Shown piece by piece: positions 4,140-37,629 of a DNA stretch of 44,178 nucleotides (positions are counted from its first letter, which is position 1; each line of letters begins with the position of its first letter). This DNA is from Hadesarchaea archaeon (lineage in GTDB: Archaea > Hadarchaeota > Hadarchaeia > Hadarchaeales > Hadarchaeaceae), in the NCBI GenBank assembly GCA_004375695.1, contig SOKQ01000037.1, forward strand, positions 1 through 44,178, written 5' to 3'. The position numbers and the translations under genes are program-made. The notes beneath the pieces were generated by a model. That model was not told the origin of the DNA, did not search any database, and saw only the letters and a program-made list of their open reading frames with translations.

Positions 4140-4436
4140 ATGGAAGTAGTAGTCAAGTTGCACGGTGACCTGCGCGAGAAGGCCGGCATCGGTACGATAA
4201 AGGTCCCAATCGACGAGGACGAGACCGTTGACACCTTGCTTATGAAGCTCGGCCGACGTCATCTTCGAGTGGTCGAGATGATCCTTGATCCGACAACGGG
4301 GGAGCTCCAGGAGAATTTTAACATCCTTCTCAACGGCCGACGGATTCAGCAAATTCGCGGGATACACACGAAGCTCAAGCACAAGGACGAGATCACGATT
4401 TCTCCGCCTGCAGCTGAGGACAGCTCGGTAGAGTGA
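4140..4436 (+). CDS. MoaD/ThiS-like beta-grasp (ubiquitin-like) protein lacking a C-terminal Gly-Gly
   Basis: 98 aa. The C-terminal half NILLNGRRIQQIRGIHTKLKHKDEITISPPAAEDSSVE parallels the GG-terminated paralog at 12305..12586 (NILVNGRRLDFLQGLNTPLKDGALVAIFPPVAGG) but ends in AAEDSSVE. Confidence 0.5.
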   Translation: MEVVVKLHGDLREKAGIGTIKVPIDEDETVDTLLMKLGRRHLRVVEMILDPTTGELQENFNILLNGRRIQQIRGIHTKLKHKDEITISPPAAEDSSVE

Positions 4437-6103: not shown

Positions 6104-7450
6104 TTACCAGAGATTGATACCCCAAAATCTCATCATCATGATTAATCCAATAATGAGGATTATGATTCCAAATACTTTCTGCGTCCATTTGCCAGCGGAT
6201 ACATATTTATTTCCAAGTTTCCCACGTACGCTACTCGTAACGGTGCATAGTGGCACGATTGGTACTCCATGGCCTAAACCAAACACGAACAAGAGTGCCC
6301 CACCCATGAGAATGGAAATCTCCTGCGTGAGGACCAGGATAAAGACAGGCATCATCAAAGAAATGGCGCACGGTGCCCACCCTATGGCAAAAAGGATACC
6401 TAAAAAAAGAGCACCGAGATAAAGCGATTTTCCACTGATTTTTAGAAACATCTTCTGTCCTTTTTCCATAATTTGTGAACTTGGTTCTCTTTTTGATTTT
6501 ATTTTAAGTATCTCTTTTATTGGTTTGGAAACATTTATTCCGAGAACAATAAGAATAACTCCAGCTATGAGATAAAAAATGGCAGATGCTTCTATGAACA
6601 AACCAACCGATGAGATGAACATTCCAAAAACAAAAAACATCATCGACATCCCTAACGTGAAGAATATTCCAATCCAGAATCCTTGGCCTGTGAGATTCTT
6701 AGATTTATCCTCTGAATCTTTCTGCAGTGAGCCAACATAAGAGACCATTGCAACCAATAAAGCAATCGAACAAGGTGATAACGCGGTAAGGATGCCTAAT
6801 GCAAAAATACCTAAAAATGTTATACTACCTCCAGAAATCTCTCCTTTAAATCCCTGCCATCTCCCTTCCGCAATATCCTGAATATCCTGAGCTAATGATT
6901 CAGCGGTTTGTACATCATCAAGTTTCCCTTTTCCCATACAATATACATGATAGACACCCACCACGTTTTGATTGTCGTCAATTAAAACAAGTGTTGGATT
7001 GGAAAATGCACCGTTAACTGTCCAATAATCTTGATAGAGCTTTGCTATCGGATACGGGCTGAAGTCTTCAACCCAATGCCAACTTACATTTATCCCATAA
7101 TCATGCTCAGCAATACCCCTGCCGCTAATTGAATAGGGATTATTCCTAATGTTAACGGTTATAATTCTAACATTATCAACCGATTGAGCGAGATTTTTTA
7201 GTTCTACTAGCTGCTCTTTCATCTCCTCCTCACATTCAATACACAACGGTGATTCCAACCCTGTAAAATGAAGAATAATAACATATCCCTTATAATCACT
7301 CAATGAAAACTCAGCTCCATTTTCATCAACAGCTGTAAAATCAGGAGCAGGCGTTACTTCATACTGATTTCCCCCAACCAAGGGCGAAAAAAGAGATAAA
7401 ACAAAGACAGCAGGAATAATAAGAAATAGTATATGAAAAACTTTCTTCAT
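6104..7450 (-). CDS. fusion protein: TlpA/ResA-like extracytoplasmic thioredoxin domain plus CcdA/DsbD-type transmembrane thiol-disulfide transfer domain
   Basis: 448 aa. Has a signal/anchor helix and a thioredoxin CxxC (SPLCIEC). The polytopic C-terminal half carries the two conserved membrane Cys of CcdA (LSPCSIALL and WAPCAISL). Confidence 0.8.
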   Translation of the reverse strand: MKKVFHILFLIIPAVFVLSLFSPLVGGNQYEVTPAPDFTAVDENGAEFSLSDYKGYVIILHFTGLESPLCIECEEEMKEQLVELKNLAQSVDNVRIITVNIRNNPYSISGRGIAEHDYGINVSWHWVEDFSPYPIAKLYQDYWTVNGAFSNPTLVLIDDNQNVVGVYHVYCMGKGKLDDVQTAESLAQDIQDIAEGRWQGFKGEISGGSITFLGIFALGILTALSPCSIALLVAMVSYVGSLQKDSEDKSKNLTGQGFWIGIFFTLGMSMMFFVFGMFISSVGLFIEASAIFYLIAGVILIVLGINVSKPIKEILKIKSKREPSSQIMEKGQKMFLKISGKSLYLGALFLGILFAIGWAPCAISLMMPVFILVLTQEISILMGGALLFVFGLGHGVPIVPLCTVTSSVRGKLGNKYVSAGKWTQKVFGIIILIIGLIMMMRFWGINLW

Positions 7451-7451
7451 T

Positions 7452-8042
7452 TTACTCGCCGCTATTTATGTGATAATAGTAAATCGCATCTTTTATCCAT
7501 CCTTCCAAATCAGATTTGTCCATGTCCCCCTCCCAGCCATGCCAACAATATTCAGCACCGCCGTTGTTGTCGATTGAAGTGATAATGGCGGTCAAAGCGA
7601 TATAATGTGGAGAATCATCAGGATCATATGCGATCGCTTCATATCCTTTACTTTCAACATCTCCCCCAAGCTCCAAATCCAAATCATAAAATGTTAGACT
7701 ATCTTTGTATTTGTTTCCAAGTTCAATTACTCTATCTGCTTGGGGCTGGCACCAAGCGCAACCCGTACGATGTACTACCAGCAGAACACAACTATTTTTC
7801 AATGAATCCAATACCCACTGAGGATGACTAACAGGTTGACCACCCTGTGGATGACCCGGTGGATAAGTTACCCAGAAACCATCTGCTCCAGTGCCGAGAG
7901 AATGCAAAGGCGTATAACTTTCCAACCAAGATGAATTATTATCCACTCCAGGTGGGTTATTAGAAATAATAAACAGCGCTATGATAACAACAGAAAGAAC
8001 TGACGGCAACAGAACTTTCAGCAACAGAGATTTGGGATTCAT
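7452..8042 (-). CDS. membrane-anchored thioredoxin-fold protein (CAWC)
   Basis: Start chosen at internal ATG 8042 (MNPKSLLLKVLLPSVLSVVIIALFII anchor). Has a CxxC motif, RTGCAWCQP. Its stop is 1 nt from the start of the downstream CcdA fusion. Confidence 0.55.
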   Translation of the reverse strand: MNPKSLLLKVLLPSVLSVVIIALFIISNNPPGVDNNSSWLESYTPLHSLGTGADGFWVTYPPGHPQGGQPVSHPQWVLDSLKNSCVLLVVHRTGCAWCQPQADRVIELGNKYKDSLTFYDLDLELGGDVESKGYEAIAYDPDDSPHYIALTAIITSIDNNGGAEYCWHGWEGDMDKSDLEGWIKDAIYYYHINSGE

Positions 8043-8133
8043 TTTAACCCCCTTCACCACCAACATCGAGGGGCCTTCCTGCAAATGTTTTGCCTCCGCC
8101 ACTGTATCATCCCCTTTTGCTTATTGTGCCCCG

Positions 8134-8367
8134 CTACCTCAACCACTTTTCGACCTCCTCTCTAGTTGGGATTCTTCCCTCAGATTTCACACTGCCGTCT
8201 ATCACCACCGCAGGCGTTGCCATTACACCATATTCTATTATTTTACCAATATCTGTGATCTCTTTGACTTCCGCTTCCATCCCGAGCTCTTCTATGGTTT
8301 CCTTCACCCTTTTTTTGACAAACTGGCACTTTGGACATCCGGGACCCAATATTTCTACTTTTTTTAT
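8134..8367 (-). CDS. small thioredoxin-family protein (redox-active disulfide protein 2 type, CPKC)
   Basis: The track ORF starts at TTG 8349 (MGPGCPKC). The frame is open upstream and reads (ATA)KKVEILGPGCPKCQ, matching the usual MK.(I/V)EILG.GCPKC N-terminus. AGGAGGTG lies 5 nt upstream of the ATA at 8367. Confidence 0.7.
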   Translation of the reverse strand: MKKVEILGPGCPKCQFVKKRVKETIEELGMEAEVKEITDIGKIIEYGVMATPAVVIDGSVKSEGRIPTREEVEKWLR

Positions 8368-8381
8368 TCCAACACCTCCTT

Positions 8382-9458
8382 TTATCCAACCAGCATTCCG
8401 TAAATGATGCCAAGCATGGTTGAAAATATCACAACCAACGCTATGTAAACGCTAGTTTTTCTTGCGCCAATAGTCTTCCACACCAAAAGCATGTTTGGGA
8501 GACTCAAGGATGGTCCGGCAAGAAGCAGGGCCAACGCGGGACCTGCACCGATGATACCTTGGCTGTATCCAAAGAGGGTGCCGACTATGGGGACTTCAAG
8601 CAGCGTCGGCATGTACAGTATTGCCCCGATTATTGAGGCGATGAAGCAAGAAAAAATTAGATTTCCACCCAACACACCCTTTACTGCATCGTACGGCATG
8701 AAGTATCCTATCACCCCGGTTATGAAAACGCCGAGTAGCAGGATTGGTACAAGTCTTTTAGCCAACCACCACGTTTCATGTCCCCACGCGCTAACTTCAT
8801 CCCGCGAATAGTGGAACTTCACGATCGCTAATGTCGCAATTATCAACGCGCCGACGATTACAGCTTTTAAGGTCAGGGGGATGTACCCAGAGGCTGCGAT
8901 TAGCAATATAAGCACAAGGAATGCAAAGAAGCCAAAACTCACATACCAAGCCCTTCTTTTTGAATCCCCATTGGGGTTTGTTTCGATGGTTGATATGGGG
9001 ACAGAGGCCTCATTTTTTTCTTGTCTCCCAAACACAGCGCCCATAATCAACCCTATCACTATTGCCACCGATATCGCACCAACTGCTCTTGCAATCCCGA
9101 GGCCTATGCCGAGAACACTTGCCGTCAGAACTATAGCTAAAAGGTTGATTGCGGGCCCAGAGTATAGGAAGGTTGTTGCGGGTCCTATGCCGCCTCCTCT
9201 CTTGTAAATACCCGCGAACATGGGGAGCACAGTACAACTACAAACGGCCAGAATTGTACCAGAAATAGAAGCCACACCGTGTGAGACCCATTTCTTTACT
9301 TTACTGCCAAAGTATCTCAGTACCGTACCCTTTGAGATAACCGCCGCAATAGCACCTGCGATGAAAAAAGCCGGAACTAAACATGTCACCACGTGTGCTG
9401 AGAGGTACTCTCCAAGCTGCTCTAATCCAGCCCATAATGCTCCCACTAGACCATTCAT
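8382..9458 (-). CDS. permease, COG0701/ArsP-like family
   Basis: 358 aa polytopic protein with the characteristic CSC motif (LAVCSCTVLPMFAGIYKRGG). It pairs with a small thioredoxin gene, as is common for this family. Confidence 0.75.
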   Translation of the reverse strand: MNGLVGALWAGLEQLGEYLSAHVVTCLVPAFFIAGAIAAVISKGTVLRYFGSKVKKWVSHGVASISGTILAVCSCTVLPMFAGIYKRGGGIGPATTFLYSGPAINLLAIVLTASVLGIGLGIARAVGAISVAIVIGLIMGAVFGRQEKNEASVPISTIETNPNGDSKRRAWYVSFGFFAFLVLILLIAASGYIPLTLKAVIVGALIIATLAIVKFHYSRDEVSAWGHETWWLAKRLVPILLLGVFITGVIGYFMPYDAVKGVLGGNLIFSCFIASIIGAILYMPTLLEVPIVGTLFGYSQGIIGAGPALALLLAGPSLSLPNMLLVWKTIGARKTSVYIALVVIFSTMLGIIYGMLVG

Positions 9459-9474
9459 TCTTCCACCCTCAAAT

Positions 9475-9494
9475 ATATGAATTTAAATTCATAT
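9475..9494. promoter_or_regulatory. perfect palindrome ATATGAATTT/AAATTCATAT, second copy of the candidate ArsR operator
   Basis: The sequence atatgaa tttaaa ttcatat lies 17 nt upstream of the permease start at 9458. Half-sites and N6 spacing are identical to 5974-5993. Confidence 0.45.
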
Positions 9495-9636
9495 GAAAAG
9501 TTTAAATATTTTTTCGTTTGATATGAAAGTCGATCGGTGGACAAAAAATGGAATTTCCATGCCCCGCTGAATTACCAAACACTTGACTCGAACCAAACTT
9601 TCTATACCTGCCTTGGCGATTGTAGGATTGATATTT

Positions 9637-10260
9637 ATGGAGATTGTGTTAGTCGGCCGCTCGAACGTCGGGAAGTCGAGCGTGATCAAGCAACTCACGG
9701 GAAAGCGGGTTCGGGTGGGCAAGCGACCCGGGGTGACGCGCAGGCCCTACCGCTATCGATGCGGCGAGCTCGATCTGGTTGACATGCCGGGCTTCGGCTT
9801 TATGGCGGGCGTCAGCCGCGAAAGGCGGGAGGAGATAAAGACAAGTATTGTGCGCTACTTGGAGCGAAATCGGCGAAGAATTCTGTTTGCACTTGAGGTG
9901 CTCGATGCCCGCGCCTTCAGCGAGATTGTAGAGCGGTGGAAGCGGCGGGGCCAGGTGCCCGTAGACGTTGAGATGTTTCAGTTTTTGCAGGAACTCGAAC
10001 TCCGCCCAATCGTTGTCGTGAACAAGATTGACCTCGTCTATCCTGAGGAGCGCGATGATGTGCTCGATAACATTTGTGAGAAGCTTGGCATGTCTTTCCC
10101 ATGGCGTCAGTGGGGGGATGTCGTAGTCCCATTTTCCGCGAAGACGGGAGAAGGTTGGGAGAATGTAATAAGACTGATTCGCGAGAGATTAACAGCTTGT
10201 GGCAAGCCCCATTTTAATAGATTTCTTAAACGTGGCCGGAGTCGCTTTACTAATCGTTAG
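9637..10260 (+). CDS. engB: ribosome-biogenesis GTPase EngB/YsxC
   Basis: Start placed at ATG 9637 (MEIVLVGRSNVGKSSVI, P-loop GxxxxGKS). DMPGFG (G3) and NKID (G4) motifs are present. Confidence 0.85.
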   Translation: MEIVLVGRSNVGKSSVIKQLTGKRVRVGKRPGVTRRPYRYRCGELDLVDMPGFGFMAGVSRERREEIKTSIVRYLERNRRRILFALEVLDARAFSEIVERWKRRGQVPVDVEMFQFLQELELRPIVVVNKIDLVYPEERDDVLDNICEKLGMSFPWRQWGDVVVPFSAKTGEGWENVIRLIRERLTACGKPHFNRFLKRGRSRFTNR

Positions 10261-10350: not shown

Positions 10351-11565
10351 TTACTTGATGGCTAGACCTTGATCCTTGGCAATCTCAAGGAACGCCTTTG
10401 CAACATGCTCCACTTTTGCTTTAGTTAGTCCGTAGGTGTTGAGCTTAAAGTGCTTCGTCAATCCCGGCTGAATCCCAACGATGCCCCTGCGCTTCAGCTC
10501 ATCGTACAGGAAGAACCCGCGCCGTTTGTGAGTTTGCGACGCCTTGTAAAATCCATCCGACTCCATGTGGATTAGGGTATGTTGTTTGGGCTTGACCCCC
10601 AGTTGTCGGGTCCCCTCGATTCGCTCCAGCTGCTCGACTAGGTATCTTGCTTGCTCTACCTCTTGGGGCCAGTGTTCGACCCGTTCGACCACGTGAGGGA
10701 ATGAAGCCATCAGCGAGATGAGCGGCGCACCCATTACCGTGCAACCTAACAAAGCATACTCCTTGAGTCCGAATTTGCGCTCACTCCAGTCACCCACGAC
10801 TTTTGATCTCTCCAACATCTTGTCGACTAGCTCTTCCTTGAGTGCCAAGATGCCGGTTGGGGCGCTCGCCGCCCATGACTTGTGCCCGCTCGAGACGATG
10901 ATATCCGCGCCCAGCTTTTTTCCATCGATTGGCATCACCCCCGCCGTGTAAGCCGCGTTCAGCAGGAAGGGCACTCCATATTTTTTACATATTTCCCCCA
11001 CGGTCGCGGCATTGTTTAGGTTGCCGTAGATGTAATCGACGTGGGTGAGTAGCACCACCGCGGGGAGCTTTCCAGTCTCTCGCTTGACCTCCTCTATTTT
11101 ATCAGCGTACGCATCCAAGTCGAGCTTGAACTCAGGAGGACCGCTGTGGGGAACCTCCTTGATCTTGAGTCTGGCGAGTTCAGCAGCTATGTAAGTTGAG
11201 TAGTGAGCAAGGCTGTCGACGATCACGTAGTCACCGGGTTCCCCCAAGGTTGTGAATGTTATGAACTTCGCCTCTCTGCAGCGCGTAACTACTCGAGCTA
11301 CATCCATGTTTAAAAATTCAGCCAAGTCCCGCATGAACTGGGCTATGGGAGGGCGCTCGATCGCGTCGAGCCTCGCTGCTTTCGGCGGGCACCAGTCGCA
11401 GGTCGAGTAACCGTCACCGAACTCGAGCAGGGCCTTCCGCGCCTCTGGAGTCAGCACCCCTCCCCGCTGGATGGGGTTAAGGTTGATGTAGCGTTCTTCC
11501 TTGAACTCGCGCTTCAGACCGAGGTATCGCCCGAGCCTTTCCTTTGGTATCCGAGGCATACACAT
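10351..11565 (-). CDS. pscS: O-phospho-L-seryl-tRNA:Cys-tRNA synthase (SepCysS)
   Basis: 404 aa PLP enzyme. Has the SepCysS N-terminal signature YINLNPIQRGG, the PLP lysine motif SSGHKS and conserved Cys residues (STCDWCPP). Its start is 1 nt after the E1 stop. Confidence 0.9.
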   Translation of the reverse strand: MCMPRIPKERLGRYLGLKREFKEERYINLNPIQRGGVLTPEARKALLEFGDGYSTCDWCPPKAARLDAIERPPIAQFMRDLAEFLNMDVARVVTRCREAKFITFTTLGEPGDYVIVDSLAHYSTYIAAELARLKIKEVPHSGPPEFKLDLDAYADKIEEVKRETGKLPAVVLLTHVDYIYGNLNNAATVGEICKKYGVPFLLNAAYTAGVMPIDGKKLGADIIVSSGHKSWAASAPTGILALKEELVDKMLERSKVVGDWSERKFGLKEYALLGCTVMGAPLISLMASFPHVVERVEHWPQEVEQARYLVEQLERIEGTRQLGVKPKQHTLIHMESDGFYKASQTHKRRGFFLYDELKRRGIVGIQPGLTKHFKLNTYGLTKAKVEHVAKAFLEIAKDQGLAIK

Positions 11566-11566
11566 C

Positions 11567-12301
11567 TCACCTGCCCTGTCTGCCGCATACTTGGCAGCTA
11601 GGGTCTTGGTTGACTTTTATCTCGTCGAAGGTCATATCCATGCCGTTAAATATTAACATTCTACCTACAAGGGGCTTGCCCACCCCTGTTATGAGCTTTA
11701 TCGCCTCCATTGCTTGCAGGCACCCTATCACCCCCGGAGTCGCTCCGAGCACTGGAAAAAGGGGTTTCTTCGGTGGTTCCTTGGGTATCGCACACTTCAG
11801 GCACGGGCCCCCGCCTGGCAGGATTGTCATTAGCTGCCCCACTAAACCTTCGACCGCACCATGGATGAATGGGACGCGGTTTCGCACGCATGCCTCGTTG
11901 AGTAAATAACGTGTGTGATAATTGTCCATACCATCAACAACGACATCCACCCCTTTGGTGAGTCGGTTCACGTTTTCGGAAGTTATCTGTTCAAATATGG
12001 CGTCGACTTTGATGTTTGAATTCATCGTCGTCAACTTCTCGGTAGCAGATTCCACTTTTAACCGGCCTACATCTGGCCCCCAGTGCAGCATCTGTCGATT
12101 GAGGTTGCTGAGTTTCGCCCGTTGCGAATCTATGATCGTAAGGTGGCCAACCCCTGCAGTGGCCAAATAACTCGACGCTGGACTCCCGAGCCCACCAATA
12201 CCGGCCACAACTACATGGGCGGCCTTTAACTTGCGCTGTCCGGTCTTGCCGAAGCCATTAATAATCATCTGGCGGCTGTATCGCCCAAAATCCTCCGGCG
12301 T
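11567..12301 (-). CDS. ThiF/MoeB/UbaA-type E1-like adenylyltransferase (no rhodanese domain); 5' end placed at a putative ACG start
   Basis: Has the nucleotide-binding motif VVVAGIGGLGS and two CxxC pairs (CLKC, CQVC). The conserved RYSRQ motif is encoded in frame upstream of the first ATG (12268). GGAGGT lies 6 nt before the ACG at 12301. Confidence 0.8.
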   Translation of the reverse strand, partial: TPEDFGRYSRQMIINGFGKTGQRKLKAAHVVVAGIGGLGSPASSYLATAGVGHLTIIDSQRAKLSNLNRQMLHWGPDVGRLKVESATEKLTTMNSNIKVDAIFEQITSENVNRLTKGVDVVVDGMDNYHTRYLLNEACVRNRVPFIHGAVEGLVGQLMTILPGGGPCLKCAIPKEPPKKPLFPVLGATPGVIGCLQAMEAIKLITGVGKPLVGRMLIFNGMDMTFDEIKVNQDPSCQVCGRQGR

Positions 12302-12304
12302 AAG

Positions 12305-12586
12305 CTAACCTCCAGCAACTGGTGGAAATATCGCCACCAAAGCTCCATCTTTCAGTGGCGTGTTGAGTCCTTGGAGAAAATCTAGCCTTCTGCCATTCAC
12401 CAAAATGTTCACAGTTTTGCGGAGTTCTCGCGTGTCGGAGGAGTAAAGTCGTTCGGCTAGCTTTTTTCCAAACCTGCTGACGAGCTCGTCAAGGAGGGAA
12501 GTGACGTCGTTTACTCCCTCAATGCTCGCCTGTTTTTTCTCGGTAGCTTCACGGAATCCAGCGAAGAATTTCGCGGTGACTGCCAT
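12305..12586 (-). CDS. MoaD/ThiS/SAMP-like ubiquitin-like sulfur-carrier protein with C-terminal Gly-Gly
   Basis: 93 aa ending IFPPVAGG followed directly by the stop, the hallmark of thiocarboxylate-forming Ubl carriers. Lies immediately upstream of the E1 gene. Confidence 0.8.
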   Translation of the reverse strand: MAVTAKFFAGFREATEKKQASIEGVNDVTSLLDELVSRFGKKLAERLYSSDTRELRKTVNILVNGRRLDFLQGLNTPLKDGALVAIFPPVAGG

Positions 12587-12611
12587 CGATTTCCCATCTC
12601 ACATTGAAGTT

Positions 12612-13391
12612 CTATAAAATTAATGCCTGCTCTAGCCCGTAATCTTGATATTTTTTCCGGGTGTTGGAGAGTTCTTGGGATTCTGGCGATACCTGAATTA
12701 GCTCAGGGAGCTTGCCCCAAGTGCCAATGTGTTCTCTCCTCACGATCAGACAGCCCCTAATTTCTCGAATGCGCTTGGCCCGGCTCAGCCCCTGCTCGAT
12801 CGAAGATTTGAGGTCTTCTCCCCTAACTGCGTTCGCTATTGAGGTAGCTGCCGCGTCCGCCACCGAGGTCTCGCATGCAACTGCGACGACGGCATCTGCT
12901 TGCCCAAAGCTCAGCGAGTGACCGGTCGTTCCCGAGCTCGTGCAGATACCTATCGGCAACTCCACAGCCCGAACAAGAAATCCTATTTTTCCGGAGTTCT
13001 GTGTATCACCCGCGAAGACCCCTACACGGAAATCTCTAGCGCCAATTATGGCTATGTCTCCTCCGTTTTCCACCAGCACGTTTTCGGCGCCCGCGCTTCG
13101 CGCTGCTTCAGCCGCGACCTGTGAGATGGCTCCGGCAACAGCTGCGAAGGGTCCTATCCCTGCGAGCTCACCTGCCCTCAGCATGAGTTCGATGACCCTT
13201 GGACGCGCTCCCTCTAGCCTCAGAGGCTCAAGCGACCATCGAAACTCCGGGTGCGCGAGGACGTATCGCTCGATCTCGCATCGGGCCTGTAGGCTGGCGT
13301 CGATCGCAGAATCTATCGTCCGCTCATCGTCGCACTTTATGTGGAGGTTTGTCTCCTTGAAGGACCAAGTTTGCGAGTACATTTGAATCAC
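12612..13391 (-). CDS. UPF0280 / COG2122 ApbE-like protein (MA1715-type sulfide-assimilation factor)
   Basis: 259 aa. Motifs GPFAAVAGAISQ, VENGGDI, CTSSGTTGHSLSFGQADAVV and ADAAATS are as in UPF0280 family members. Confidence 0.75.
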   Translation of the reverse strand: MIQMYSQTWSFKETNLHIKCDDERTIDSAIDASLQARCEIERYVLAHPEFRWSLEPLRLEGARPRVIELMLRAGELAGIGPFAAVAGAISQVAAEAARSAGAENVLVENGGDIAIIGARDFRVGVFAGDTQNSGKIGFLVRAVELPIGICTSSGTTGHSLSFGQADAVVAVACETSVADAAATSIANAVRGEDLKSSIEQGLSRAKRIREIRGCLIVRREHIGTWGKLPELIQVSPESQELSNTRKKYQDYGLEQALIL

Positions 13392-13793
13392 CTAGAACCT
13401 CGATAGCTTGAGCGCTCGCACCGGGCATGATGGTACGCAGAGCTCGCAGTAAATACACTTGTCCTCGTCGAGCTCGACCGATTTGTCGTCAGTCATGTAA
13501 AGCGCGCCGGTCGGACAGAGTGAGAGACATGCCCCGCAGTCGAAGCATGAATCGCGGTCGAGCTCGATTGCACGCTTAATCTCTTGGACCTCGACGCCTT
13601 TTCGCTTGAACAGCGCGATTGTCTTATCAACCTCTTTGTCGGGAGCATCGATTGAAAGCAGTATCTCTCCACCTTTTGTGCTGAGTTCAGCGTACAGAAT
13701 ATTGGGCAGGATCTCAGTTTTTTTGATTACTGATGCTAAAATGGGCTCTGTGGCTTTCTGAGTGGAGTACCTCAATAGCACCTTTCGAGTCAT
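13392..13793 (-). CDS. NIL domain plus 2x[4Fe-4S] ferredoxin (MA1822-type)
   Basis: 133 aa. The N-terminal NIL-like domain is followed by two Cys clusters, CFDCGACLSLCP and CIYCELCVPSCP. Confidence 0.85.
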   Translation of the reverse strand: MTRKVLLRYSTQKATEPILASVIKKTEILPNILYAELSTKGGEILLSIDAPDKEVDKTIALFKRKGVEVQEIKRAIELDRDSCFDCGACLSLCPTGALYMTDDKSVELDEDKCIYCELCVPSCPVRALKLSRF

Positions 13794-15331
13794 CTTCCTC
13801 GTCCCCCCAACAACTTAGATAGATCCTGATTCGTCAGGATTCCTCTGAGCTCGCCCCGGGCGTTTATCACAGGAACTCCAGAGATTTTGTGTTTTTCAAG
13901 TTTCCTCGCCACGGCATCGACTGGCTCGTCCTCAGTTGCCGTGATGACCTTGGAAGTCAGAACCTCTGACAATTTCTTCTTACCAGTCCCGACTGCCACG
14001 GCGATGTCCCACGAGGTCGCGATTCCCACGAGTCTCCCTTTGGCATCTACGATCGGGAGATGGTCGAAGTTGCGCTTAGCGAATATCTTTGCTGCGCTGG
14101 CGATTGAGTCGCTTGGCTTGGCGGTCACCACCTCTCTCGTCATCAAATTCCTGACAAACGGGACGGCTGTGATTTGTTTCATCGGCTTGAACACTTGATC
14201 GGTGGACAGCCCTTCCACGGGTTGGGAAAGGAAGAATCGCTTTTCTTCAATCCACTTCTTTAGGACGCCAGAGATTTCTCTCGCCCACTTCAGGCTGCTC
14301 AGGGGGCTGACGAGTACTTCATTGCCATTGATTTCAACCTTCCCAGATTTCAGTTCAGAGTAGGTCACCTCCCTAAGGATTGGACGGCCCCTTCGAGGAG
14401 CCCCGTAGTCGGTGAGATCTGTTTTTATCTCATCATCGCTGACGCCAGTTGTCTTTGCAACTCGCTCGTTTATGATTGGAATTGGAATTCCCAAGCCGAC
14501 GTAGAGCGAAGTCCCGTAATTTTCGATTGTTACTCCCCTGATGTAGCGTGCATCCATCTCTTTCAAGTTCCCGATGGTCATGATGGTGCCCATTGTCTTG
14601 GTGGGGGCGTGTTGAGTGCCCTCCCAGAAGATGTAGCCTTGAGCACCCCCTAGGAAGATTCGCGTTCCAATCCCGATTGTTTCGTAGTTGGGGTCGTTGT
14701 GGAGCGGGCTTAGGCTGCCGGATCCCGAGTATGTCACGTTACCGTAGTTTGGCAGCAGGGTTCCCATGTAGGTGTATATCGTTTCATCACGCGAGTTCGT
14801 GGCCGCGACGTAGCGCTGGTAGGCGTTGCGTGGGTTGCATAGGACAGCCTGATTTATGTCGTCCTTGGTTATGGTGGTCTCGAGCTCCTTGCGTGGATAG
14901 CAATCGGTGCCATACGCGATTGCCCTGACATCGATTTTTTTACCTCTAATCAAATCTTCGATAACGTGCCCGCCGCCGTACTCAAAGCCGTGGGTCTCGC
15001 TGAGCTGGGTGGCGCCTATGTAAGCATCGACGGCCGCAACGCCGGCGTAAGCTTCGACATCGTTGAGCCAGACACGCTGCATTTTAATCGGCGGATCAGC
15101 ATGCCCGAAGTTCAGCCAAGCTCCCGAGCTACACATCGCTCCGAATGTACCCGTGGTGACGATGTCCACTTCTTTGGCAGCCGCGACTTCACCCCTTTCT
15201 CTCACGATCTCCACCATTTCCTCCGCTGTCACGACCACCGCATCGCCACGCCTGATCCGGTCGTTTATCTCGGCCACCGACTTGTTCACTTTGGTTTTAG
15301 TCAGTCCAATACCCCCTATTTCAGGAACCAA
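13790..15331 (-). CDS. COG1900 homocysteine-biosynthesis protein (MA1821-type) with C-terminal tandem CBS domains
   Basis: 513 aa. The N-terminal ~370 aa show the COG1900/DUF39 layout. The C-terminus has two CBS repeats (MTREVVTAKPSD..., HLPIVDAKGRLVGIATSWDI; VITATEDEPV..., GVPVINARGELRGILTNQDL). TTG start per the track. Confidence 0.85.
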   Translation of the reverse strand: MVPEIGGIGLTKTKVNKSVAEINDRIRRGDAVVVTAEEMVEIVRERGEVAAAKEVDIVTTGTFGAMCSSGAWLNFGHADPPIKMQRVWLNDVEAYAGVAAVDAYIGATQLSETHGFEYGGGHVIEDLIRGKKIDVRAIAYGTDCYPRKELETTITKDDINQAVLCNPRNAYQRYVAATNSRDETIYTYMGTLLPNYGNVTYSGSGSLSPLHNDPNYETIGIGTRIFLGGAQGYIFWEGTQHAPTKTMGTIMTIGNLKEMDARYIRGVTIENYGTSLYVGLGIPIPIINERVAKTTGVSDDEIKTDLTDYGAPRRGRPILREVTYSELKSGKVEINGNEVLVSPLSSLKWAREISGVLKKWIEEKRFFLSQPVEGLSTDQVFKPMKQITAVPFVRNLMTREVVTAKPSDSIASAAKIFAKRNFDHLPIVDAKGRLVGIATSWDIAVAVGTGKKKLSEVLTSKVITATEDEPVDAVARKLEKHKISGVPVINARGELRGILTNQDLSKLLGGRGR

Positions 15332-15373: not shown

Positions 15374-15580
15374 TCACAGGAATATCTCTAACCTTCTAGC
15401 GTTCAGGGTATCAGCTATAGTTTTTTGGCTCTTTTCCACGGCATCTGCAGCCTCTTGCCCGAGTGAGTAAAGAAAAAGTGGATGTCCAAATTTCTCGGTG
15501 AGGTACGGTAACATGGCGTCGAGGACCTCTTTAGCTACTTGGGTTGTTGTGCCATTGTCTAAGTAAGCTCTCATCGCCAT
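15374..15580 (-). pseudogene. remnant of a cysteine desulfurase (NifS/IscS) gene: N-terminal ~68 codons only
   Basis: MAMRAYLDNGTTTQVAKEVLDAMLPYLTEKFGHPLFLYSLG...ARRLEIFL aligns to the class V aminotransferase N-terminus (YLDNaaTT...amlpy.te.FGNPsS.HS.G...EIiFTSG). It stops where the FTSG segment should follow. Only 42 nt separate it from the next gene. Confidence 0.6.
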
Positions 15581-15708
15581 TCCTAATGTATAATGGTGTT
15601 ATATTATTAAGAATATTTACGCGGCCGGCAAGCATCTATGATCGGATTAATCACGCGCAGCCTTCCCGGACATCATTCCCACATTAAGTCAATCTCGCAG
15701 GGGTTTCT

Positions 15709-15855
15709 CTAGCATTTTGCATACTTCTCAGGGTTCTCCTCGAAGCTTGTCTTGCATGCAGGGGCGCAGAAGTAGTAGGTCTTGCCCTTGTACTCCGCCT
15801 TGTGCTCAGCCGTTGCCTCGTCCACGTCCATTCCACACACGGGATCCTTTGCCAT
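15709..15855 (-). CDS. YHS/TRASH-type metal-binding small protein (48 aa, below the ORF-track cutoff)
   Basis: Hand translation: MAKDPVCGMDVDEATAEHKAEYKGKTYYFCAPACKTSFEENPEKYAKC. YHS consensus DPVCGM...GK.YYFC...C...F..NPE.Y is present. GGAGGTGG lies 3 nt upstream of the ATG. It starts 13 nt downstream of the copA stop. Confidence 0.7.
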   Translation of the reverse strand: MAKDPVCGMDVDEATAEHKAEYKGKTYYFCAPACKTSFEENPEKYAKC

Positions 15856-15868
15856 TCTCCACCTCCTT

Positions 15869-18346
15869 TTATTTTTCAGATGAGTAAGAAGGTTGAATCT
15901 TGGCCCGCCTCAACAGATTAGCGTTGCTCACCACGCTCACCGAACTCGTCGCCATCGCCAGCTCCGCTATGACTGGGTGGAGCAGCCCGAAGATCGCAAG
16001 GGGTATCGCCGCCGTGTTATAGCCGAATGCCCAGAAGAGGTTCTGTTTGATCTTGCGGAACGTCGCCCGGGAGAGCTTTGTCGCGCTGACCACGCTCGAG
16101 AGGTCGCCGCGCACTAGGATGACGTCGCCAGCCTCGATTGCGATATCGGTGCCCGTACCGATCGCGATTCCAACGTTCGCTTGGGTAAGTGCGGGAGCAT
16201 CATTGATTCCATCCCCCACCATCGCCACCATCCCGACCTCCCCTTGCAGGCGCTTGATTTCTGCAACCTTCTGATCGGGCAGTACTTCCGAGAGCACGCG
16301 GTCAATGCCGACCTGTCGTGCGATGGCGTTGGCAGTGCGAGGGTTGTCGCCGGTAATCATGACCGACTTGAGCCCCATCTTGTGTAGCTCTTTGATCGCC
16401 TGCACCGAGTCTTCCTTCAGCGTGTCGGCCACCGCGCAGACCCCAGCGAGCTTCTTACCCGAAGCGACGAGTACGGCGGTCTTGCCCTCGTCTTCAAGGC
16501 GCTTCAGTTCACCCTCAAGTGGATCGACGTTTATACCGGCCTCCTTCAGTAAGAGCCGATTTCCAACCAAGATTTGCTTTCCATCGATGGTGGCTCGAAC
16601 GCCCTTCCCTCTCACCGCCTTGAATCCCTTGAGCTTCGCGGGCTCGACCTTCTTGGCGCGTGCTCCCTCAACTATGGCCTTGGCGATAGGGTGCTCGGAG
16701 CCAGCCTCGACACTCGCTGCCAGCCTCAGGACCTCGTGCTGAGCGAAATCCTTTGTCGTGACGACATCGGTCAGTGCTGGCTTTCCTTGGGTGATGGTGC
16801 CTGTCTTATCGAAGACGATCGTGTGCACGTCCTTGAGCGTCTGAATTGCCTCACCCTTACGGATTATGATCCCGTTTTCTGCACCCAAGCCGCTCCCGAC
16901 CATCAGCGTGGTAGGCGTCGCCAGACCAAGGGCGCAGGGGCAGGCGATGACGAGTACGGCGACCGTGGCGAAGATTGCGAGGGTGAACATACCCAACGTT
17001 GGGTCAACCCAAGGTAGGAACGATTGTGCCCAGTTGGCGATTCCCCCTATGAAACCCGGCACGACCATCCACAGAATGAAAGTCGCCGTAGCGATCAGCA
17101 ACACGGCTGGCACAAAAAAGCCGGTGACCTTGTCCGCGAATTCCTGAATTGGAACCTTGGTCCCTTGGCACTCTTCAACCATTTTAATTACTTGGGCGAG
17201 GAAGGTGTCTTTTCCGACTTTCGTGGCCTTGATCTTGAGCAGGCCATCTTGGTTGACCGTGGCGCCTATAGCCTCGCTCCCCTTCTTTTTATGCACGGGC
17301 ATTGACTCGCCCGTCGCCATCGACTCGTCGACTGCACTTTCACCCCCAATGACCACCCCATCGGTCGGGATTTTCTCGCCTGGGCGTACGATTATCACAT
17401 CGTCGACCTTCACTTCCTCGATTGGAACTTCCTTCTCCTTGTCCTTAACGAGAATGCGCGCAGATTTGGCTTCGAGCATTAGAAGCTTCTTAATAGCTTG
17501 GGATGCCCTACCCTTGGCCTTGGTCTCGACGTATCTGCCGGTGAGATTGAATGCCATAATCATCGCGGCAACGCCGGAGTAGTTCAGGATGGGAATTCCG
17601 AAGAATATGGGTGGACCAGTGAGGAAGGCTATTGTAGTTCCCATGGCAATGAGAACATCCATATTAGTAGATTTATGATAAATCGTTTTTGCAGCTGCAC
17701 GAAGCGTTGGTAGGCCCACCCAGAAAATCACAGGCACGGCGAGCAGGATAATCCCCAAATTGTAAATTTCCCAGTTCGGCCAGGTCACGCCGAAAATCAT
17801 CTCGGGGAGCATCCAGAGGATGATAGGGATGGTGAAGCCCCATGCCACCAACATACGCACTCGAGCTCGCTGCATCTCTACCAATGATTTGTCGACTTCC
17901 TTCTCCTCGCTTATATCGTAGCCAACACTTTGGACGGTCTTTCGGAGGTCCATCAGCGTCGCAACTTCGGGGGCGTATTCAACCGTTGCCTTTTCGGTCG
18001 CAAAATTGACACTGGCACGGCGAACTCCTTTCACGCTTTTAAGCGCTTTCTCGATCTTGGCCGCGCATGAAGCGCAGGTCATCCCAGTGAGCTTGAGGCT
18101 TATCTCGCGGGTTCGTTCGTCCTCATGCGTGATGCCTATGGGTTCATAACCTGTCCCCCGAATGGTTTCCCCGATTTTTTTGATGCTGATCTTTTTAGAA
18201 TCGTATTCCACAATGCCTTTCTCAGTAGCGACGTTGACGTTCGCACTGATAACCCCCGGCTGCTTTTTCAGAGCCTTCTCGATGGTTTTGCCACAGCTCA
18301 CGCAGCGCATACCAGAAATCTGGATGGTGGTCTTCTTTTTGCCCAT
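15869..18346 (-). CDS. copA: copper-translocating P1B-type ATPase
   Basis: 825 aa. Has two N-terminal HMA domains ([20 protein letters not shown]), the CPC transmembrane motif ([11 protein letters not shown]), the phosphorylation site DKTGTIT, plus HP and GDGINDAP motifs. Confidence 0.95.
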
Positions 18347-18460
18347 GTGGACTATGTGAATATTATGATGTTATAATGTAAAAAATTAGGTGAACCTCAG
18401 CAAGCGGAAATGGGTCACTTAGCTTATATGGGTGTAAAAACTCCATTTCAAGGTGAGAAA

Positions 18461-19393
18461 ATGGAACATTGGGATTTAATCGTCATCGGAGCGGGGCCAG
18501 CTGGACTAACCGCCGGCATATACGGCATTCGAAGCGGACTTAAAACCCTAATCCTCGAGGAGAAAATTCCTGGGGGGGCGGCCGCAGAATGTCCCCTTAT
18601 TGAAAACTATCCAGGTTTTCCCTCCATCAGCGGTCAAGAGTTGATTAGCAAAATGGTGGAACATTGCAAGAAATTAGGGGCACCGATTAATCAACTCGAG
18701 AAGGTCGTTGAGCTGGACATCAAAGGTGAGAAAAAGGTGATGAAAACCGAAAGAACCACATACACGGCTTCCGCGATCATCATCGCTTCTGGCTGCCATC
18801 ACCAGGAGCTCGGGGTGCCTGGCGAAAGCGAGTTTCGCGGCAGGGGGGTCAGCTATTGCGCGGTTTGCGATGGTGCCTTCTTCAAAGGTAAAAGGGTAAT
18901 CGTTGTGGGCGGAGGAAATTCGGCAGCTGTTTCTGCTATATTCCTATCGAACCTAGCGTCTGAAGTTAAGTTGGCCCACCGAAGAGTTCGACTGAGGGCG
19001 GAGGAAGCTCTCGTAAAAGATTTGGGGGGGCGAAAGGTGAAGGTCCTGTGGAATACGGAGCTCAAGGAAATTAAGGGCGACACCAAGGTTAAGAGCGTCC
19101 GCCTGTTCGACAACAAAAATGGCGGGACCAAAGAAGTGAAAATCGACGGCGTATTCATCCAGGCGGGGGAAATCCCCAACAGCCAAATCGCAAGGGAAGC
19201 AGGAGTAAAGGTGGACGATAGCGGCTACATCATCGTGGACGAGCAACAGAGAACTAACGTTCGAGGCGTGTATGCCGCAGGCGACGTGACTGCAGGTCGC
19301 GTGAAACAGGTGGGAGTGGCTGTTGGGCAAGCAATCGAGGCGGTTATCGATGCCTTTGGTTGCATTAAGAAGCCCTATTACTACAAGGGCTGA
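18461..19393 (+). CDS. trxB: thioredoxin-disulfide reductase
   Basis: Start placed at ATG 18461 (MEHWDLIVIGAGPAG, FAD motif), with GGTGAG 3 nt upstream. Has the redox CAVCDG and the second dinucleotide motif VVGGGNSA. Confidence 0.9.
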   Translation: MEHWDLIVIGAGPAGLTAGIYGIRSGLKTLILEEKIPGGAAAECPLIENYPGFPSISGQELISKMVEHCKKLGAPINQLEKVVELDIKGEKKVMKTERTTYTASAIIIASGCHHQELGVPGESEFRGRGVSYCAVCDGAFFKGKRVIVVGGGNSAAVSAIFLSNLASEVKLAHRRVRLRAEEALVKDLGGRKVKVLWNTELKEIKGDTKVKSVRLFDNKNGGTKEVKIDGVFIQAGEIPNSQIAREAGVKVDDSGYIIVDEQQRTNVRGVYAAGDVTAGRVKQVGVAVGQAIEAVIDAFGCIKKPYYYKG

Positions 19394-32787: not shown

Positions 32788-33213
32788 ATGTCGAACAGTG
32801 TGGCTGCTTCGGATGTGATTCGGTCGATGATGCGTTCTGGGTTCTCCCACGATGAAATCTACGATGTGCTCGCGGGCACAGGGTTGCCGGGCGAGCAGAT
32901 TCAGCTGCTCATCGACCGCGTGGCAGCGGAGTTTCAAGAGGCAAAGTTCGAGCCCCAGACTTCTCGATTGGGGGGCGAGGTCGAGAAGGTCTTCAGCGGG
33001 GCTTTTGAGGGACTACAGCACGATTTGTTTGAGCGCATCAATTCGGTTTCACGAAAGCTGGAGCTCGTGAGGGTGGAGCTCGAGAAGCTTGGTATGCGGG
33101 TAGTCGAGCTCCAAACCCTCGTTGAGCGAGGGCTGTTAAGTTCGGTTTCAGGTCTTGGTCGAAAGCGCCACCCGAGAGTTGACAGGGGCGTCAATTTAAT
33201 CAAGCCATTTTAG
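32788..33213 (+). CDS. hypothetical soluble coiled-coil protein
   Basis: 141 aa, acidic, with a heptad-like segment (LFERINSVSRKLELVRVELEKLGMRVVELQTLVERG). GGGGAG lies upstream of the ATG. Its 3' end converges on and overlaps the 33196 gene by 18 nt. Confidence 0.45.
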   Translation: MSNSVAASDVIRSMMRSGFSHDEIYDVLAGTGLPGEQIQLLIDRVAAEFQEAKFEPQTSRLGGEVEKVFSGAFEGLQHDLFERINSVSRKLELVRVELEKLGMRVVELQTLVERGLLSSVSGLGRKRHPRVDRGVNLIKPF

Positions 33214-35262: not shown

Positions 35263-35930
35263 GAAGACCACAGTTCCAAGGTTATCTCGACGGCGATGTC
35301 GGGTTCGAGTTCTAAAGTGGTGTCAAGCACTTTCTGAATTCGTTGGGTTAGCTCCTCCTGCGAGATGGGCAGGGTTGCAACAATTGTTTCTGAGCAAAGC
35401 TTCCGTTGCGCACCCTCGTCGAAATTTTTGATCTCGCTCTCGAAGTGAACCCGGACAAAGCCGAGATCCAATGGCAAAGTTCTCACGATCAGGCGATATC
35501 CGAAACGTCCACCGATGAGCTTATCGAGCACCTTCTTCAGAAATTCTCGAAGCTCGCTTTTCATGCCCCAACTTGGCCCGGGTGGTTCAAGCCCAACTCC
35601 TTCAGCTTCGATGTGCAAGTTGAAAAGCGCATCCTCAACCAAAAGTTGTGTGAGAGCTTTATGGCGCAGGTTACGTTTGGTCGACCCTTTGAGTACAGGT
35701 ACGTTTGGTTCAAAACTGAGGGTGTCGAGTTGATATTCAAATCCGCCGAACTCATCCGCGGTCGAGTGTTGAAGCGCCAGTAAAGTGCTCTGCGCGAAGC
35801 TCGCGGCGTATCGAGTACTTTCAATTTTAGGATCGATGGGGCTTGCCCCGACCAAAAGTAAACTGGCGAACGAAATCAAGAGCGCAAAGACCAACATGTC
35901 TGCTATGTAACCAATGCCTTGTTTGTCCAT
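35259..35930 (-). CDS. prepilin-like (class III signal peptide-like) protein
   Basis: 223 aa. N-terminus MDKQG|IGYIADMLVFALLISFASLLLVG. Starts 1 nt after the upstream stop. Confidence 0.55.
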   Translation of the reverse strand: MDKQGIGYIADMLVFALLISFASLLLVGASPIDPKIESTRYAASFAQSTLLALQHSTADEFGGFEYQLDTLSFEPNVPVLKGSTKRNLRHKALTQLLVEDALFNLHIEAEGVGLEPPGPSWGMKSELREFLKKVLDKLIGGRFGYRLIVRTLPLDLGFVRVHFESEIKNFDEGAQRKLCSETIVATLPISQEELTQRIQKVLDTTLELEPDIAVEITLELWSS

Positions 35931-35931
35931 T

Positions 35932-36366
35932 TTATCTCCTCCACACCCACACGACTAACTCACAGAGCTGCGCCGACCCTTGGCCGCGCGTGACTGCCAC
36001 CGGTAGGCTGATTGAACAAGGTGGCGAGAAATATCCCCCAAGCTGGTTTTGCTCGGGGCCGTACGCTAGCAACACCTCGCCCCCAAGAGTTCTAACCTCG
36101 GCTCGCAGCTCGATGCCCTCTCGAGCAAGCAGTTTGGAGTAGTCCTCAAGCTTTTTCATCGTTAAATCAATCGACCCGGGTGAAGCGGCCAACACACGAT
36201 TTTTGATGTCCTCGGCGATGTTCAGCGCTAGGTCGAAGCTCTCGTAGGCGTTCTTCCTCTCCGCGTAGATGGAGTAAGAGTGCACGAGCGCCGCAATGAA
36301 AAGGCAGAGTAGACCGACGACCGCGAGCGTCGCGAATAGATCCTCGCCGACTGAGAGTTGCTCCAT
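35932..36366 (-). CDS. prepilin-like / N-terminally anchored protein
   Basis: 144 aa. N-terminus MEQLSVG|EDLFATLAVVGLLCLFIAALV. Its start directly abuts the upstream stop (36367). Confidence 0.5.
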   Translation of the reverse strand: MEQLSVGEDLFATLAVVGLLCLFIAALVHSYSIYAERKNAYESFDLALNIAEDIKNRVLAASPGSIDLTMKKLEDYSKLLAREGIELRAEVRTLGGEVLLAYGPEQNQLGGYFSPPCSISLPVAVTRGQGSAQLCELVVWVWRR

Positions 36367-36792
36367 CTAAATCAATTCCAATCGAACCCCGCCCGTTTTG
36401 CTCAGGCATATCGCGCTCGGGCTCTCGCGACTGATCGAAAACTCTCCACCGTTGACTTCGTGGTCGAGCATCAGGGTACGCTCGACTCGCTCCTGCGACT
36501 CCACGATTACACGAATTACTTGTATTCCTTGGTTGAGTTCACCGATGATTGTTACCTTGGTTTGATGCGCGATGGTTGGCAGCGTCCTCCTCAGCTCAAC
36601 CTTGCCGGGCATGCTCTCAGCGGCTCGAATCGCCCCTGCAATCGTGTCGGCGAGCGTCGCTAGGTCTTCTCTCTCCGCAGTGCGCTTGAACCCCAAGGAC
36701 ATCGTGAGCACAGCGCCAAACAAAGCCAGTGCAACAAGTGCGACGCCGATCTTGCAGGCGAAAAAGTCGGCCAGCACCCCGCGTTCATTTAT
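36367..36792 (-). CDS. prepilin-like protein; start uncertain (ATA 36792 or GTG 36777)
   Basis: The track ORF extends to 36933 but would overlap the upstream gene by 149 nt. An ATA start gives (M)NERG|VLADFFACKIGVALVALALFGAVL, which matches the leader pattern of its five neighbours. Confidence 0.5.
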   Translation of the reverse strand: MNERGVLADFFACKIGVALVALALFGAVLTMSLGFKRTAEREDLATLADTIAGAIRAAESMPGKVELRRTLPTIAHQTKVTIIGELNQGIQVIRVIVESQERVERTLMLDHEVNGGEFSISRESPSAICLSKTGGVRLELI

Positions 36793-37207: not shown

Positions 37208-37212
37208 GCTTA

Positions 37213-37599: not shown

Positions 37600-37629
37600 C
37601 TCTCCCGCCGAGGCTTTGGGTGAAGGTTG

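Follow-up and report, generated by a model that had tools for sequence, protein, structure and literature searches.

A MoaD/MoeB-type carrier and activating enzyme within a sulfide-assimilation operon of Hadarchaeota, with SepCysS as a possible additional client

The contig SOKQ01000037.1 of a Hadesarchaea archaeon (GCA_004375695.1), analysed over its 44,178 nucleotides and referred to here as the window, carries at 10351-15331 of the minus strand six co-directional open reading frames (ORFs). In this run of genes a ubiquitin-like protein (Ubl) and its putative activating enzyme (E1) are embedded between genes of sulfide assimilation and homocysteine synthesis and the gene for SepCysS (Sep-tRNA:Cys-tRNA synthase). 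Domains were assigned using Pfam and NCBIfam models with their curated cut-offs, and the features of the operon, in the direction of transcription, are as follows.

13790..15331, minus strand: COG1900/HcyBio protein with two CBS domains (PF01837 at 498.5 bits, CBS x2), catalytic subunit of L-aspartate-semialdehyde sulfurtransferase (homocysteine synthesis)
13392..13793, minus strand: NIL + 2x[4Fe-4S] ferredoxin (PF09383 NIL and Fer4 families), electron-supplying partner of COG1900
12612..13391, minus strand: COG2122/UPF0280-type protein, ApbE-like (NCBIfam PRK04334.1-1, E=5e-72, 242.5 bits, just below the curated cut-off of 262)
12305..12586, minus strand: MoaD/SAMP1-type Ubl of 93 amino acids, GG then TAG (ThiS fold; TIGR01687, NF041918)
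12269..12304 (12269-12307 with the TAG), minus strand: twelve in-frame codons (LTPEDFGRYSRQ) between the Ubl TAG and the E1 ATG, a canonical MoeB/ThiF N-terminal motif
11567..12268, minus strand: ThiF/MoeB/UbaA-type E1 of 233 amino acids (PF00899 at 236.7 bits)
10351..11565, minus strand: SepCysS (TIGR02539)

An earlier note on this DNA, made from the sequence alone, had claimed six co-directional genes with this domain content, and the ORFs and the Pfam and NCBIfam matches agree with it. Its further claim, that all of the genes overlap or lie no more than 25 nt apart, stood for four of the junctions: the COG1900 and NIL-ferredoxin genes overlap by 4 nt, the NIL-ferredoxin and COG2122 genes abut (0 nt), 25 nt separate COG2122 from the Ubl, and 1 nt separates the E1 from SepCysS. 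However, between the stop of the Ubl gene and the E1's first ATG there are 36 nt, in frame with both the Ubl and the E1. The HcyBio/DUF39 protein followed by the NIL + 2x[4Fe-4S] protein constitutes the gene pair of L-aspartate semialdehyde sulfurtransferase. The start of the COG1900 gene is uncertain; the ORF list places it at a TTG at 15331, and gene callers give 499 amino acids in a 97%-identical locus (L003). As the protein reaches only 160 bits against the methanogenesis marker 16 model, for which the cut-off is 364, it is not ComF. The family PF27030 is precomputed on orthologues identical to the COG2122 protein of the window, and COG2122 has been genetically tied to sulfide assimilation in Methanosarcina acetivorans and Desulfovibrio vulgaris (PMC5764234). 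The nearest relatives of every gene in the operon are found in metagenome-assembled genomes (MAGs) of Hadarchaeota (Hadesarchaea), and the six genes are best read as an operon for sulfide assimilation that is conserved in this group.

The assignment of SepCysS is secure by score (516.3 bits against an equivalog cut-off of 365.25 for TIGR02539) and by alignment with the M. jannaschii enzyme (3WKR, E=1.5e-118), in which the pyridoxal phosphate (PLP) lysine and three catalytic cysteines are kept: C-D-W-C stands opposite C-D-Y-C, LLGCT opposite MLGCT, and SGHKS is conserved. SepRS, the other enzyme of the pathway, is not encoded in the window. Hadesarchaea DG-33 has a cluster (L007) with 91-94% identity to that of the window, and Mukai et al. 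(2017) include a SepRS of this close relative in their data set; the tRNA-dependent cysteine pathway is therefore plausibly complete in the lineage of the window.

The Ubl ends in FPPVAGG and lies above both of its family cut-offs, with 77.6 bits for TIGR01687 (moaD_arch, cut-off 49.5) and 66.8 bits for NF041918 (SAMP1, cut-off 60). The E1 consists of a ThiF domain alone, without a rhodanese domain, and has both of the marks sought in such an enzyme, a Gly-rich nucleotide loop in the ThiF adenylation domain and two zinc CxxC pairs. These pairs, CLKC and CQVC, fall opposite the zinc cysteines in MoeB of E. coli, the closest relative of solved structure as well (1JW9, E=5e-50, full-length alignment). 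The E1 falls below every NCBIfam equivalog cut-off (UbaA, 228 of 450 bits; MoeB PRK08762, 270 of 449; ThiF, 207 of 275; MoeZ, 193 of 647), and many of its relatives at 67-75% identity, across many lineages, are proteins in which a Ubl is fused to the N-terminus of the E1 (Ubl::E1). A profile search of the window found no JAB, TusA or MoaE.

The distribution of this gene order was surveyed with one genome per GTDB species, anchored on SepCysS, and the six proteins together with accessory proteins were mapped onto 69 loci by tblastn. Adjacency was defined as an E1 gene within 700 nt of SepCysS and was counted over 63 species-level SepCysS loci. An E1 was found at this distance in 41 of the 63, including 22 of the 29 loci in Hadarchaeota and 18 of the 21 in Methanomethylicia; these neighbours belong to four E1 lineages and occur in at least five arrangements and in two archaeal phyla. 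The 29 Hadarchaeota loci divide as follows.

Full six-gene order: 13 complete, and 2 truncated where a contig ends
E1 present, Ubl not adjacent: 2 (L024, L033)
E1 downstream of SepCysS: 1 (L053)
SepCysS-E1b-TusA with a convergent JAB peptidase: 4 (Hadarchaeum L021-23, L066)
No E1 nearby: 7

The six-gene order was also found on further metagenome contigs. The possibility raised in the earlier note that the order might be unique to this contig can thus be set aside, since it recurs in 13 complete and 2 contig-cut Hadarchaeota species loci, and the arrangement lies far beyond chance. The E1b of Hadarchaeum is ~43% identical to the E1 of the window, and an unclassified archaeon (L058) has E1b-TusA-SepCysS-DUF169. 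In Methanomethylicia, 18 of the 21 loci have an E1 (50-60% identical) divergent from SepCysSn-SepCysS, with no COG1900, NIL or COG2122 nearby. The 297-residue protein encoded downstream of the Methanosuratincola E1 matches no Pfam or NCBIfam family and shows little conservation. A gene of the Prok-JAB/JAMM family lies convergent to the cluster in 10 related loci, following SepCysS or E1b-TusA; six of these have a fused Ubl::E1 (L011-L014, L016, L019) and four have E1b-TusA (L021-L023, L066).

Several variants of the cluster were encountered in the same survey. DUF169 (COG2043) recurs directly beside SepCysS, on either side (L009 12365-12955, L021 8300-8893, L022, L058 2905-3468, L059, L066). 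In Hadesarchaea S4B3_HD70 (L024 / L078-L080 9423-10004), DUF2099, which is methanogenesis marker 8-like, replaces COG2122 and the Ubl upstream of E1-SepCysS, its gene overlapping the start of the E1 by 4 nt. The HcyBio, NIL and SepCysS proteins of L008 are 92-93% identical to those of the window, its COG2122 (L008 9146-9922) is only 69% identical, and the Ubl and E1 are missing; L008 is thus a mosaic produced by recombination, and the segment affected is precisely that of the carrier. A free GG-ended Ubl (8467-8766) and a Ubl::E1 fusion (8983-9993) stand in tandem between COG2122 and SepCysS in L011, and an ORF encoding a 57-residue zinc ribbon precedes the Ubl::E1 fusion in L004, L005 and L025.

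The Ubl and E1 are, however, found beside other genes as well. Orthologues of the E1 (67-74% identical) and of the Ubl (54-65%) directly adjoin MoaE or AOR in sister genomes, in the arrangements TBP<>Ubl::E1-MoaE-radical SAM (L076, L081 and L087, from DG-33-1, a Hodarchaeaceae MAG and Hadarchaeum sp. BE2011_56_16), ThiS-MoaE with an E1 in divergent orientation (L006, L077) and, with the tungsten enzyme AOR, AOR-ThiS-ThiF (L096). The Ubl orthologue lies directly upstream of MoaE whether it is fused to the E1 or free (L076, L081, L084, L087), and in L084-86 MoaD stands beside MoaE without an E1. Several other fused E1s come from contigs equal in length to contigs with MoaE hits. In a neighbour-joining tree the MoaE-linked E1s are nested within the SepCysS-linked Hadarchaeota clade. 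Two assemblies were compared at both their MoaE and SepCysS loci, and they are reciprocal: in GCA_030601675.1 the SepCysS cluster is complete and holds Ubl::E1 (L014), and both Ubl and E1 are missing from the TBP<>MoaE locus (L083), and GCA_020725055.1 has HcyBio-NIL-SepCysS-SufCB without E1 (L027) and TBP<>Ubl::E1-MoaE (L087). The window itself contains one further protein of the Ubl type.

4140..4436, plus strand: second ThiS/SAMP1-family beta-grasp protein (PF02597, E=2.9e-8), without terminal GG, ending in SPPAAEDSSVE

The Ubl of the operon is 54-65% identical to the MoaE-adjacent Ubls of L076, L081 and L084, but only 31% identical to this second protein. Identity to the paralogues of L006 was also tried as a means of placing the Ubl and proved undiscriminating (MoaE-adjacent 52%, NifU-adjacent 56%). 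Orthologues of the second protein mostly lack a terminal GG (none in L008, L017, L028 and L031; GG followed by V in L010; GG followed by 10 residues in L033), and its gene overlaps a minus-strand ORF of 130 amino acids without a family match.

The simplest reading of these neighbourhoods is that of a single MoaD::MoeB-type unit per genome which has relocated between client loci. The Ubl and E1 are then probably the general MoaD/SAMP1-type carrier and MoeB/UbaA-type E1 of the lineage rather than a dedicated pair, and the earlier note, which implied a pathway-specific pair, is contradicted on this point by the orthologues beside MoaE and AOR and by the two reciprocal genomes. Indeed, the pattern in the sister genomes comes close to what the note itself had named as speaking against its reading, that is, a genome's MoaD/MoeB pair partnering MoaE elsewhere. 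The relay to cysteine or homocysteine that it had proposed is itself made more plausible by the linkage of E1 to SepCysS, with its four E1 lineages. A role with MoaE does not exclude SepCysS as a further client. The contig of DG-33-1 (L076) carries both Ubl::E1-MoaE and an operon comprising a second SepCysS, a ThiF protein of 348 amino acids, NifS and NifU; this second SepCysS is bona fide (409.6 bits against 365). As DG-33-1 has both sets, a genome with a housekeeping E1 at MoaE still places another E1 beside SepCysS.

The junction between the Ubl and E1 genes has a structure of its own. In the window and 16 related sequences (L001-3, L007, L009, L010, L015, L020, L061, L089-L095) the Ubl ends in GG-TAG, and the twelve codons after the TAG read L-T-x-E-x-F-x-R-Y-x-R-Q, followed by ATG or GTG. 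In an alignment with MoeB of E. coli they correspond to residues 6-15, a segment which contributes an arginine to the ATP site; the RYxRQ motif of the E1 sits upstream of its first ATG and downstream of the Ubl TAG. A sense codon (K, G or R) replaces the TAG in sister lineages, producing true Ubl::E1 fusions, and in the more distant L028 and L031 the E1 has its own start in another frame and E-R-Y-x-R-Q is retained. The residues of the motif never vary, and some of their codons differ synonymously (CGA/AGA/AGG, TAC/TAT, CTT/CTC); over all 12 codons there are 8 synonymous and 12 non-synonymous variants, with 23% synonymous expected, which is only suggestive of translation. At the E1 start, L020 has ATA for ATG and so would seem to lack a start codon, but it is a single locus; L091 has GTG. 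Read-through, non-AUG initiation or an N-terminally shortened E1 are each possible at this junction. Recoding of the TAG as pyrrolysine was considered and rejected: no tRNA-Pyl is present in the window, and TAG is taken as an ordinary stop there because it ends 15 of the 43 genes.

Immediately upstream of the operon lies a further feature which bears on the source of sulfur.

15374..15580, minus strand: N-terminal remnant of a NifS-like cysteine desulfurase, 68 amino acids (PF00266, positions 2-64 of 371 only)

It matches, at 75% identity, the N-terminal part of the intact NifS in the SepCysS-ThiF-NifS-NifU operon of DG-33-1 (L076), and suggests loss of a cysteine desulfurase in the lineage of the window.

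Taken together, these comparisons are best accounted for by a shared MoaD/MoeB-type thiocarboxylate system housed in a sulfide-assimilation operon, for which SepCysS would probably be an additional client, a reading to which we would assign a probability of roughly 45%. By family membership, COG1900 with its NIL-ferredoxin would form homocysteine from aspartate semialdehyde, SepCysS would convert Sep-tRNA(Cys) to Cys-tRNA(Cys), and COG2122 would help to capture or traffic sulfide. The GG terminus of the Ubl would be adenylated by the E1, and the acyl-adenylate converted to a thiocarboxylate with sulfur mobilised by the operon. COG2122-trafficked sulfide is a candidate source because the E1 has no rhodanese domain, the neighbouring NifS is a remnant and COG2122 is directly upstream of the Ubl. 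The thiocarboxylate would be used by a molybdopterin synthase encoded elsewhere, and its sulfur would probably pass to SepCysS also. SepCysS is proposed as a client since E1 genes of four separate lineages adjoin it; moreover, where the unit stands beside MoaE and AOR it stands beside genes that make or use a product of the thiocarboxylate, and SepCysS, the third neighbour to recur, is most simply read as a client too. The neighbour kept through every rearrangement is SepCysS, not COG2122 or COG1900.

Transfer to SepCysS could take one of two routes. In CysO/CysM a Ubl thiocarboxylate attacks the PLP-aminoacrylate formed from O-phosphoserine, and a JAMM peptidase resolves the adduct; by analogy, the thiocarboxylate might attack PLP-bound dehydroalanyl-tRNA directly. 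Alternatively, the catalytic cysteines of SepCysS might be persulfidated in the manner of Urm1, the thiocarboxylate of which persulfidates target cysteines (PMC9574740). Both routes appear compatible with the conserved cysteines of SepCysS. COG1900 could be a further client, and the sulfur species that this enzyme uses was still described as unclear in 2025 (PMC12068725); the comparisons yielded no signal specific to COG1900. Archaeal Ubls have been described as redundant, multi-client sulfur carriers which are important at low sulfur (PMC11323500).

A number of observations weigh against this explanation. The link between E1 and SepCysS is not obligatory, since 22 of the 63 SepCysS loci, including 7 in Hadarchaeota, have no E1 within 700 nt, and none was found near SepCysS in the sampled loci of Bathyarchaeia, Asgard, Alkanophaga, Hydrothermarchaeota and Methanospirillum. 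The SepCysS proteins of Hadarchaeota and Methanomethylicia are 66-72% identical, and if an E1-SepCysS pair was transferred jointly and its synteny then inherited, only a handful of independent events would be left. No Ubl was found beside the E1 in the Methanomethylicia or E1b loci with a hidden Markov model built from 20+ Ubls, and none of the best 120 SepCysS relatives is fused to an E1, Ubl or TusA. SepCysS is active with free sulfide in vitro. Finally, the reciprocal genomes are incomplete MAGs of other organisms and not the genome of the window.

Of the alternatives, the most serious, although we consider it somewhat unlikely, is that the genes are merely co-regulated: the Ubl and E1 would serve solely molybdopterin or tungstopterin synthesis and tRNA thiolation, sharing with their neighbours a common sulfide-derived pool and signal, and nothing would be transferred from the Ubl to SepCysS or COG1900. 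This would fit with the Ubl/E1 orthologues that adjoin MoaE or AOR, with the Thi4, ThiI and SufCB genes that make the same neighbourhoods a general 'sulfur island', with the seven Hadarchaeota clusters that manage without the pair and with L008, which differs from the window mainly by its absence. Against this, SepCysS is the constant neighbour even without COG1900, COG2122, Thi4 or Suf genes (Methanomethylicia), DG-33-1 retains Ubl::E1 with MoaE yet has another E1 beside SepCysS, and Hadarchaeum swaps Ubl-E1a for E1b-TusA at its SepCysS locus. It appears improbable, on the other hand, that the pair is specific to cysteine and/or homocysteine synthesis, as the earlier note had it, a counterpart at the tRNA level of CysO/MoeZ/CysM/Mec+ with another MoaD/MoeB for the cofactors. 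The tight operon placement between COG2122 and SepCysS, the JAB gene after SepCysS in the 10 related loci, an echo of Mec+, and L084-86, which show that MoaD can stay beside MoaE without an E1, would all be in keeping with dedication. Yet the Ubl of the cluster is orthologous to the MoaE-adjacent Ubls, neither Ubl nor E1 is present at the MoaE locus of GCA_030601675.1, a genome that carries the cluster, the only other ThiS-family protein of the window is without a GG terminus, and JAB, TusA and MoaE are missing from the window.

The flow of sulfur might also be reversed, with a persulfide-carrying SepCysS of NifS fold donating sulfur to the rhodanese-less E1 and its Ubl, like CsdA-CsdL or IscS-ThiF/MoeB. 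E1 genes usually cluster with sulfur donors, here TusA (L021, L058) and NifS-NifU (L076), and both the reduction of the window NifS to 68 amino acids and the lack of a rhodanese domain would leave room for such a donor. However, this leaves the sulfur source of SepCysS itself unexplained, NifS and SepCysS occur together in L076, making SepCysS redundant as a donor there, and we know of no report of desulfurase or trans-persulfidase activity for SepCysS; we therefore hold reversal to be quite improbable. Very improbable, in our view, is a regulatory conjugation in which the E1 attaches the Ubl to SepCysS or the COG1900 enzyme for regulation or protection (sampylation/urmylation) and JAB reverses it. 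The Ubl passes the SAMP1 model, Ubls of Thermococcus kodakarensis conjugate to specific proteins, and the SepCysS-adjacent JAB matches the haloarchaeal desampylase model weakly (46.8 bits, cut-off 130), but the window has no JAB and no evidence points to any target. Conjugation and sulfur carriage are, in any case, not mutually exclusive in this Ubl family.

The reading of a shared thiocarboxylate system may be extended to a bolder one, rather unlikely when taken as a whole, in which the tRNA-dependent cysteine pathway draws its sulfur physiologically from a protein thiocarboxylate, complete with a JAB step and junction read-through, as the equivalent of CysO/CysM/Mec+ at the level of tRNA. 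The E1-activated Ubl thiocarboxylate would attack dehydroalanyl-tRNA or persulfidate SepCysS, and JAB would resolve the adduct or mature the fused precursor. At the junction, termination would give free Ubl and read-through a little Ubl::E1, thereby setting the ratio of carrier to enzyme. The co-occurrence of COG1900, NIL and COG2122 with SepCysS has already been published. No description of a Ubl or E1 linked to SepCysS was found in full-text literature or, its figures (Fig. S2) aside, in Mukai et al. (2017).

For the in vivo sulfur supply of SepCysS and COG1900, an E1-activated carrier protein is a concrete candidate that is cheap to test with expressible proteins, and the recurrence of Ubl/E1 with SepCysS is wide enough to make the sulfur donor of this cysteine pathway testable. 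If SepCysS is a client, protein-thiocarboxylate chemistry would be extended from free amino acids and cofactors to aminoacyl-tRNA, and the coding of cysteine would be tied to an ancestral ubiquitin-like system. If it is not, the cluster still shows one MoaD::MoeB unit moving between client loci in closely related genomes, which is useful for the annotation of sulfur metabolism in Hadarchaeota.

The operon is flanked (6104-9458 and 15581-19393) by redox and metal-homeostasis genes, namely a DsbD-like membrane protein with a fused redoxin, a protein of the thioredoxin fold, a permease of the ArsP type, a Cu-type P-type ATPase bearing two HMA domains, a small ORF with a YHS domain and a flavoprotein resembling thioredoxin reductase. 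Further along, at 33196-37644 on the minus strand, there are five co-directional ORFs (691, 223, 144, 188 and 143 amino acids) without a significant Pfam match. Similar runs of small unannotated ORFs, one with DUF7266, adjoin the EPSP synthase-ThiI-TBP-MoaE locus in L083, L084 and L087.

Several known systems resemble parts of the operon. The first three families are those of M. acetivorans MA1821/MA1822 (L-ASST) with MA1715 and of the DUF39 protein, the NIL-ferredoxin and the COG2122 protein of Desulfovibrio, with the same succession of COG1900 and NIL-ferredoxin, and genetic evidence links them to the assimilation of sulfide and the synthesis of homocysteine (PMC5764234, PMC12068725). In these organisms, however, the three genes are scattered and the two papers describe no part for a Ubl or E1, whereas in the window they form one operon with Ubl, E1 and SepCysS. 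Wolinella succinogenes HcyS/HcyF/MetY is alike in that Ubl thiocarboxylate sulfur is used for homocysteine, from clusters with Ubl, E1 and sulfur-assimilation genes (cited in PMC5764234), but the homocysteine enzyme of the window is the unrelated COG1900/NIL-ferredoxin and not a PLP sulfhydrylase of MetY type. The SAMP1/UbaA system of Haloferax volcanii with MoaE, and UblB/TK2118 of T. kodakarensis, are matched by a Ubl that passes the SAMP1 and moaD_arch models, by orthologues beside MoaE and AOR and by a single rhodanese-less E1 which serves several Ubls; the window differs in that the pair lies inside a Cys/Hcy operon, the E1 reaches only 228 bits against the UbaA cut-off of 450, and Ubl and E1 are fused or one in-frame TAG apart.

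With E. coli CsdA-CsdE-CsdL(TcdA) the operon shares a PLP gene of NifS fold beside a gene of the ThiF family that is E1-like, to which E1b-TusA-SepCysS in L058 adds a small sulfur-relay protein in between. However, CsdL acts on tRNA, where it dehydrates t6A, and takes no Ubl as substrate, and CsdA works as a cysteine desulfurase rather than as a Cys-tRNA synthase. The likeness to M. tuberculosis CysO/MoeZ/CysM/Mec+ consists of a Ubl ending in GG, an E1 and a PLP enzyme that turns O-phosphoserine into an aminoacrylate by elimination of phosphate, with a JAB/JAMM gene that is adjacent in sister loci but not in the window; operons of the type ThiS/MoaD-E1-JAB-cysteine synthase were described by Iyer et al. 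2006 (PMC1779556). CysM is an O-phosphoserine sulfhydrylase of fold type II, whilst SepCysS has the class V aminotransferase fold (fold type I) and a tRNA-bound substrate; the E1 (233 amino acids, ThiF only) lacks the rhodanese domain of MoeZ; and the Ubl/E1 pair appears to be shared with MoaE. All six families are known, and the new element would be the association of Ubl and E1 with SepCysS, a putative variant of the protein-thiocarboxylate relays.

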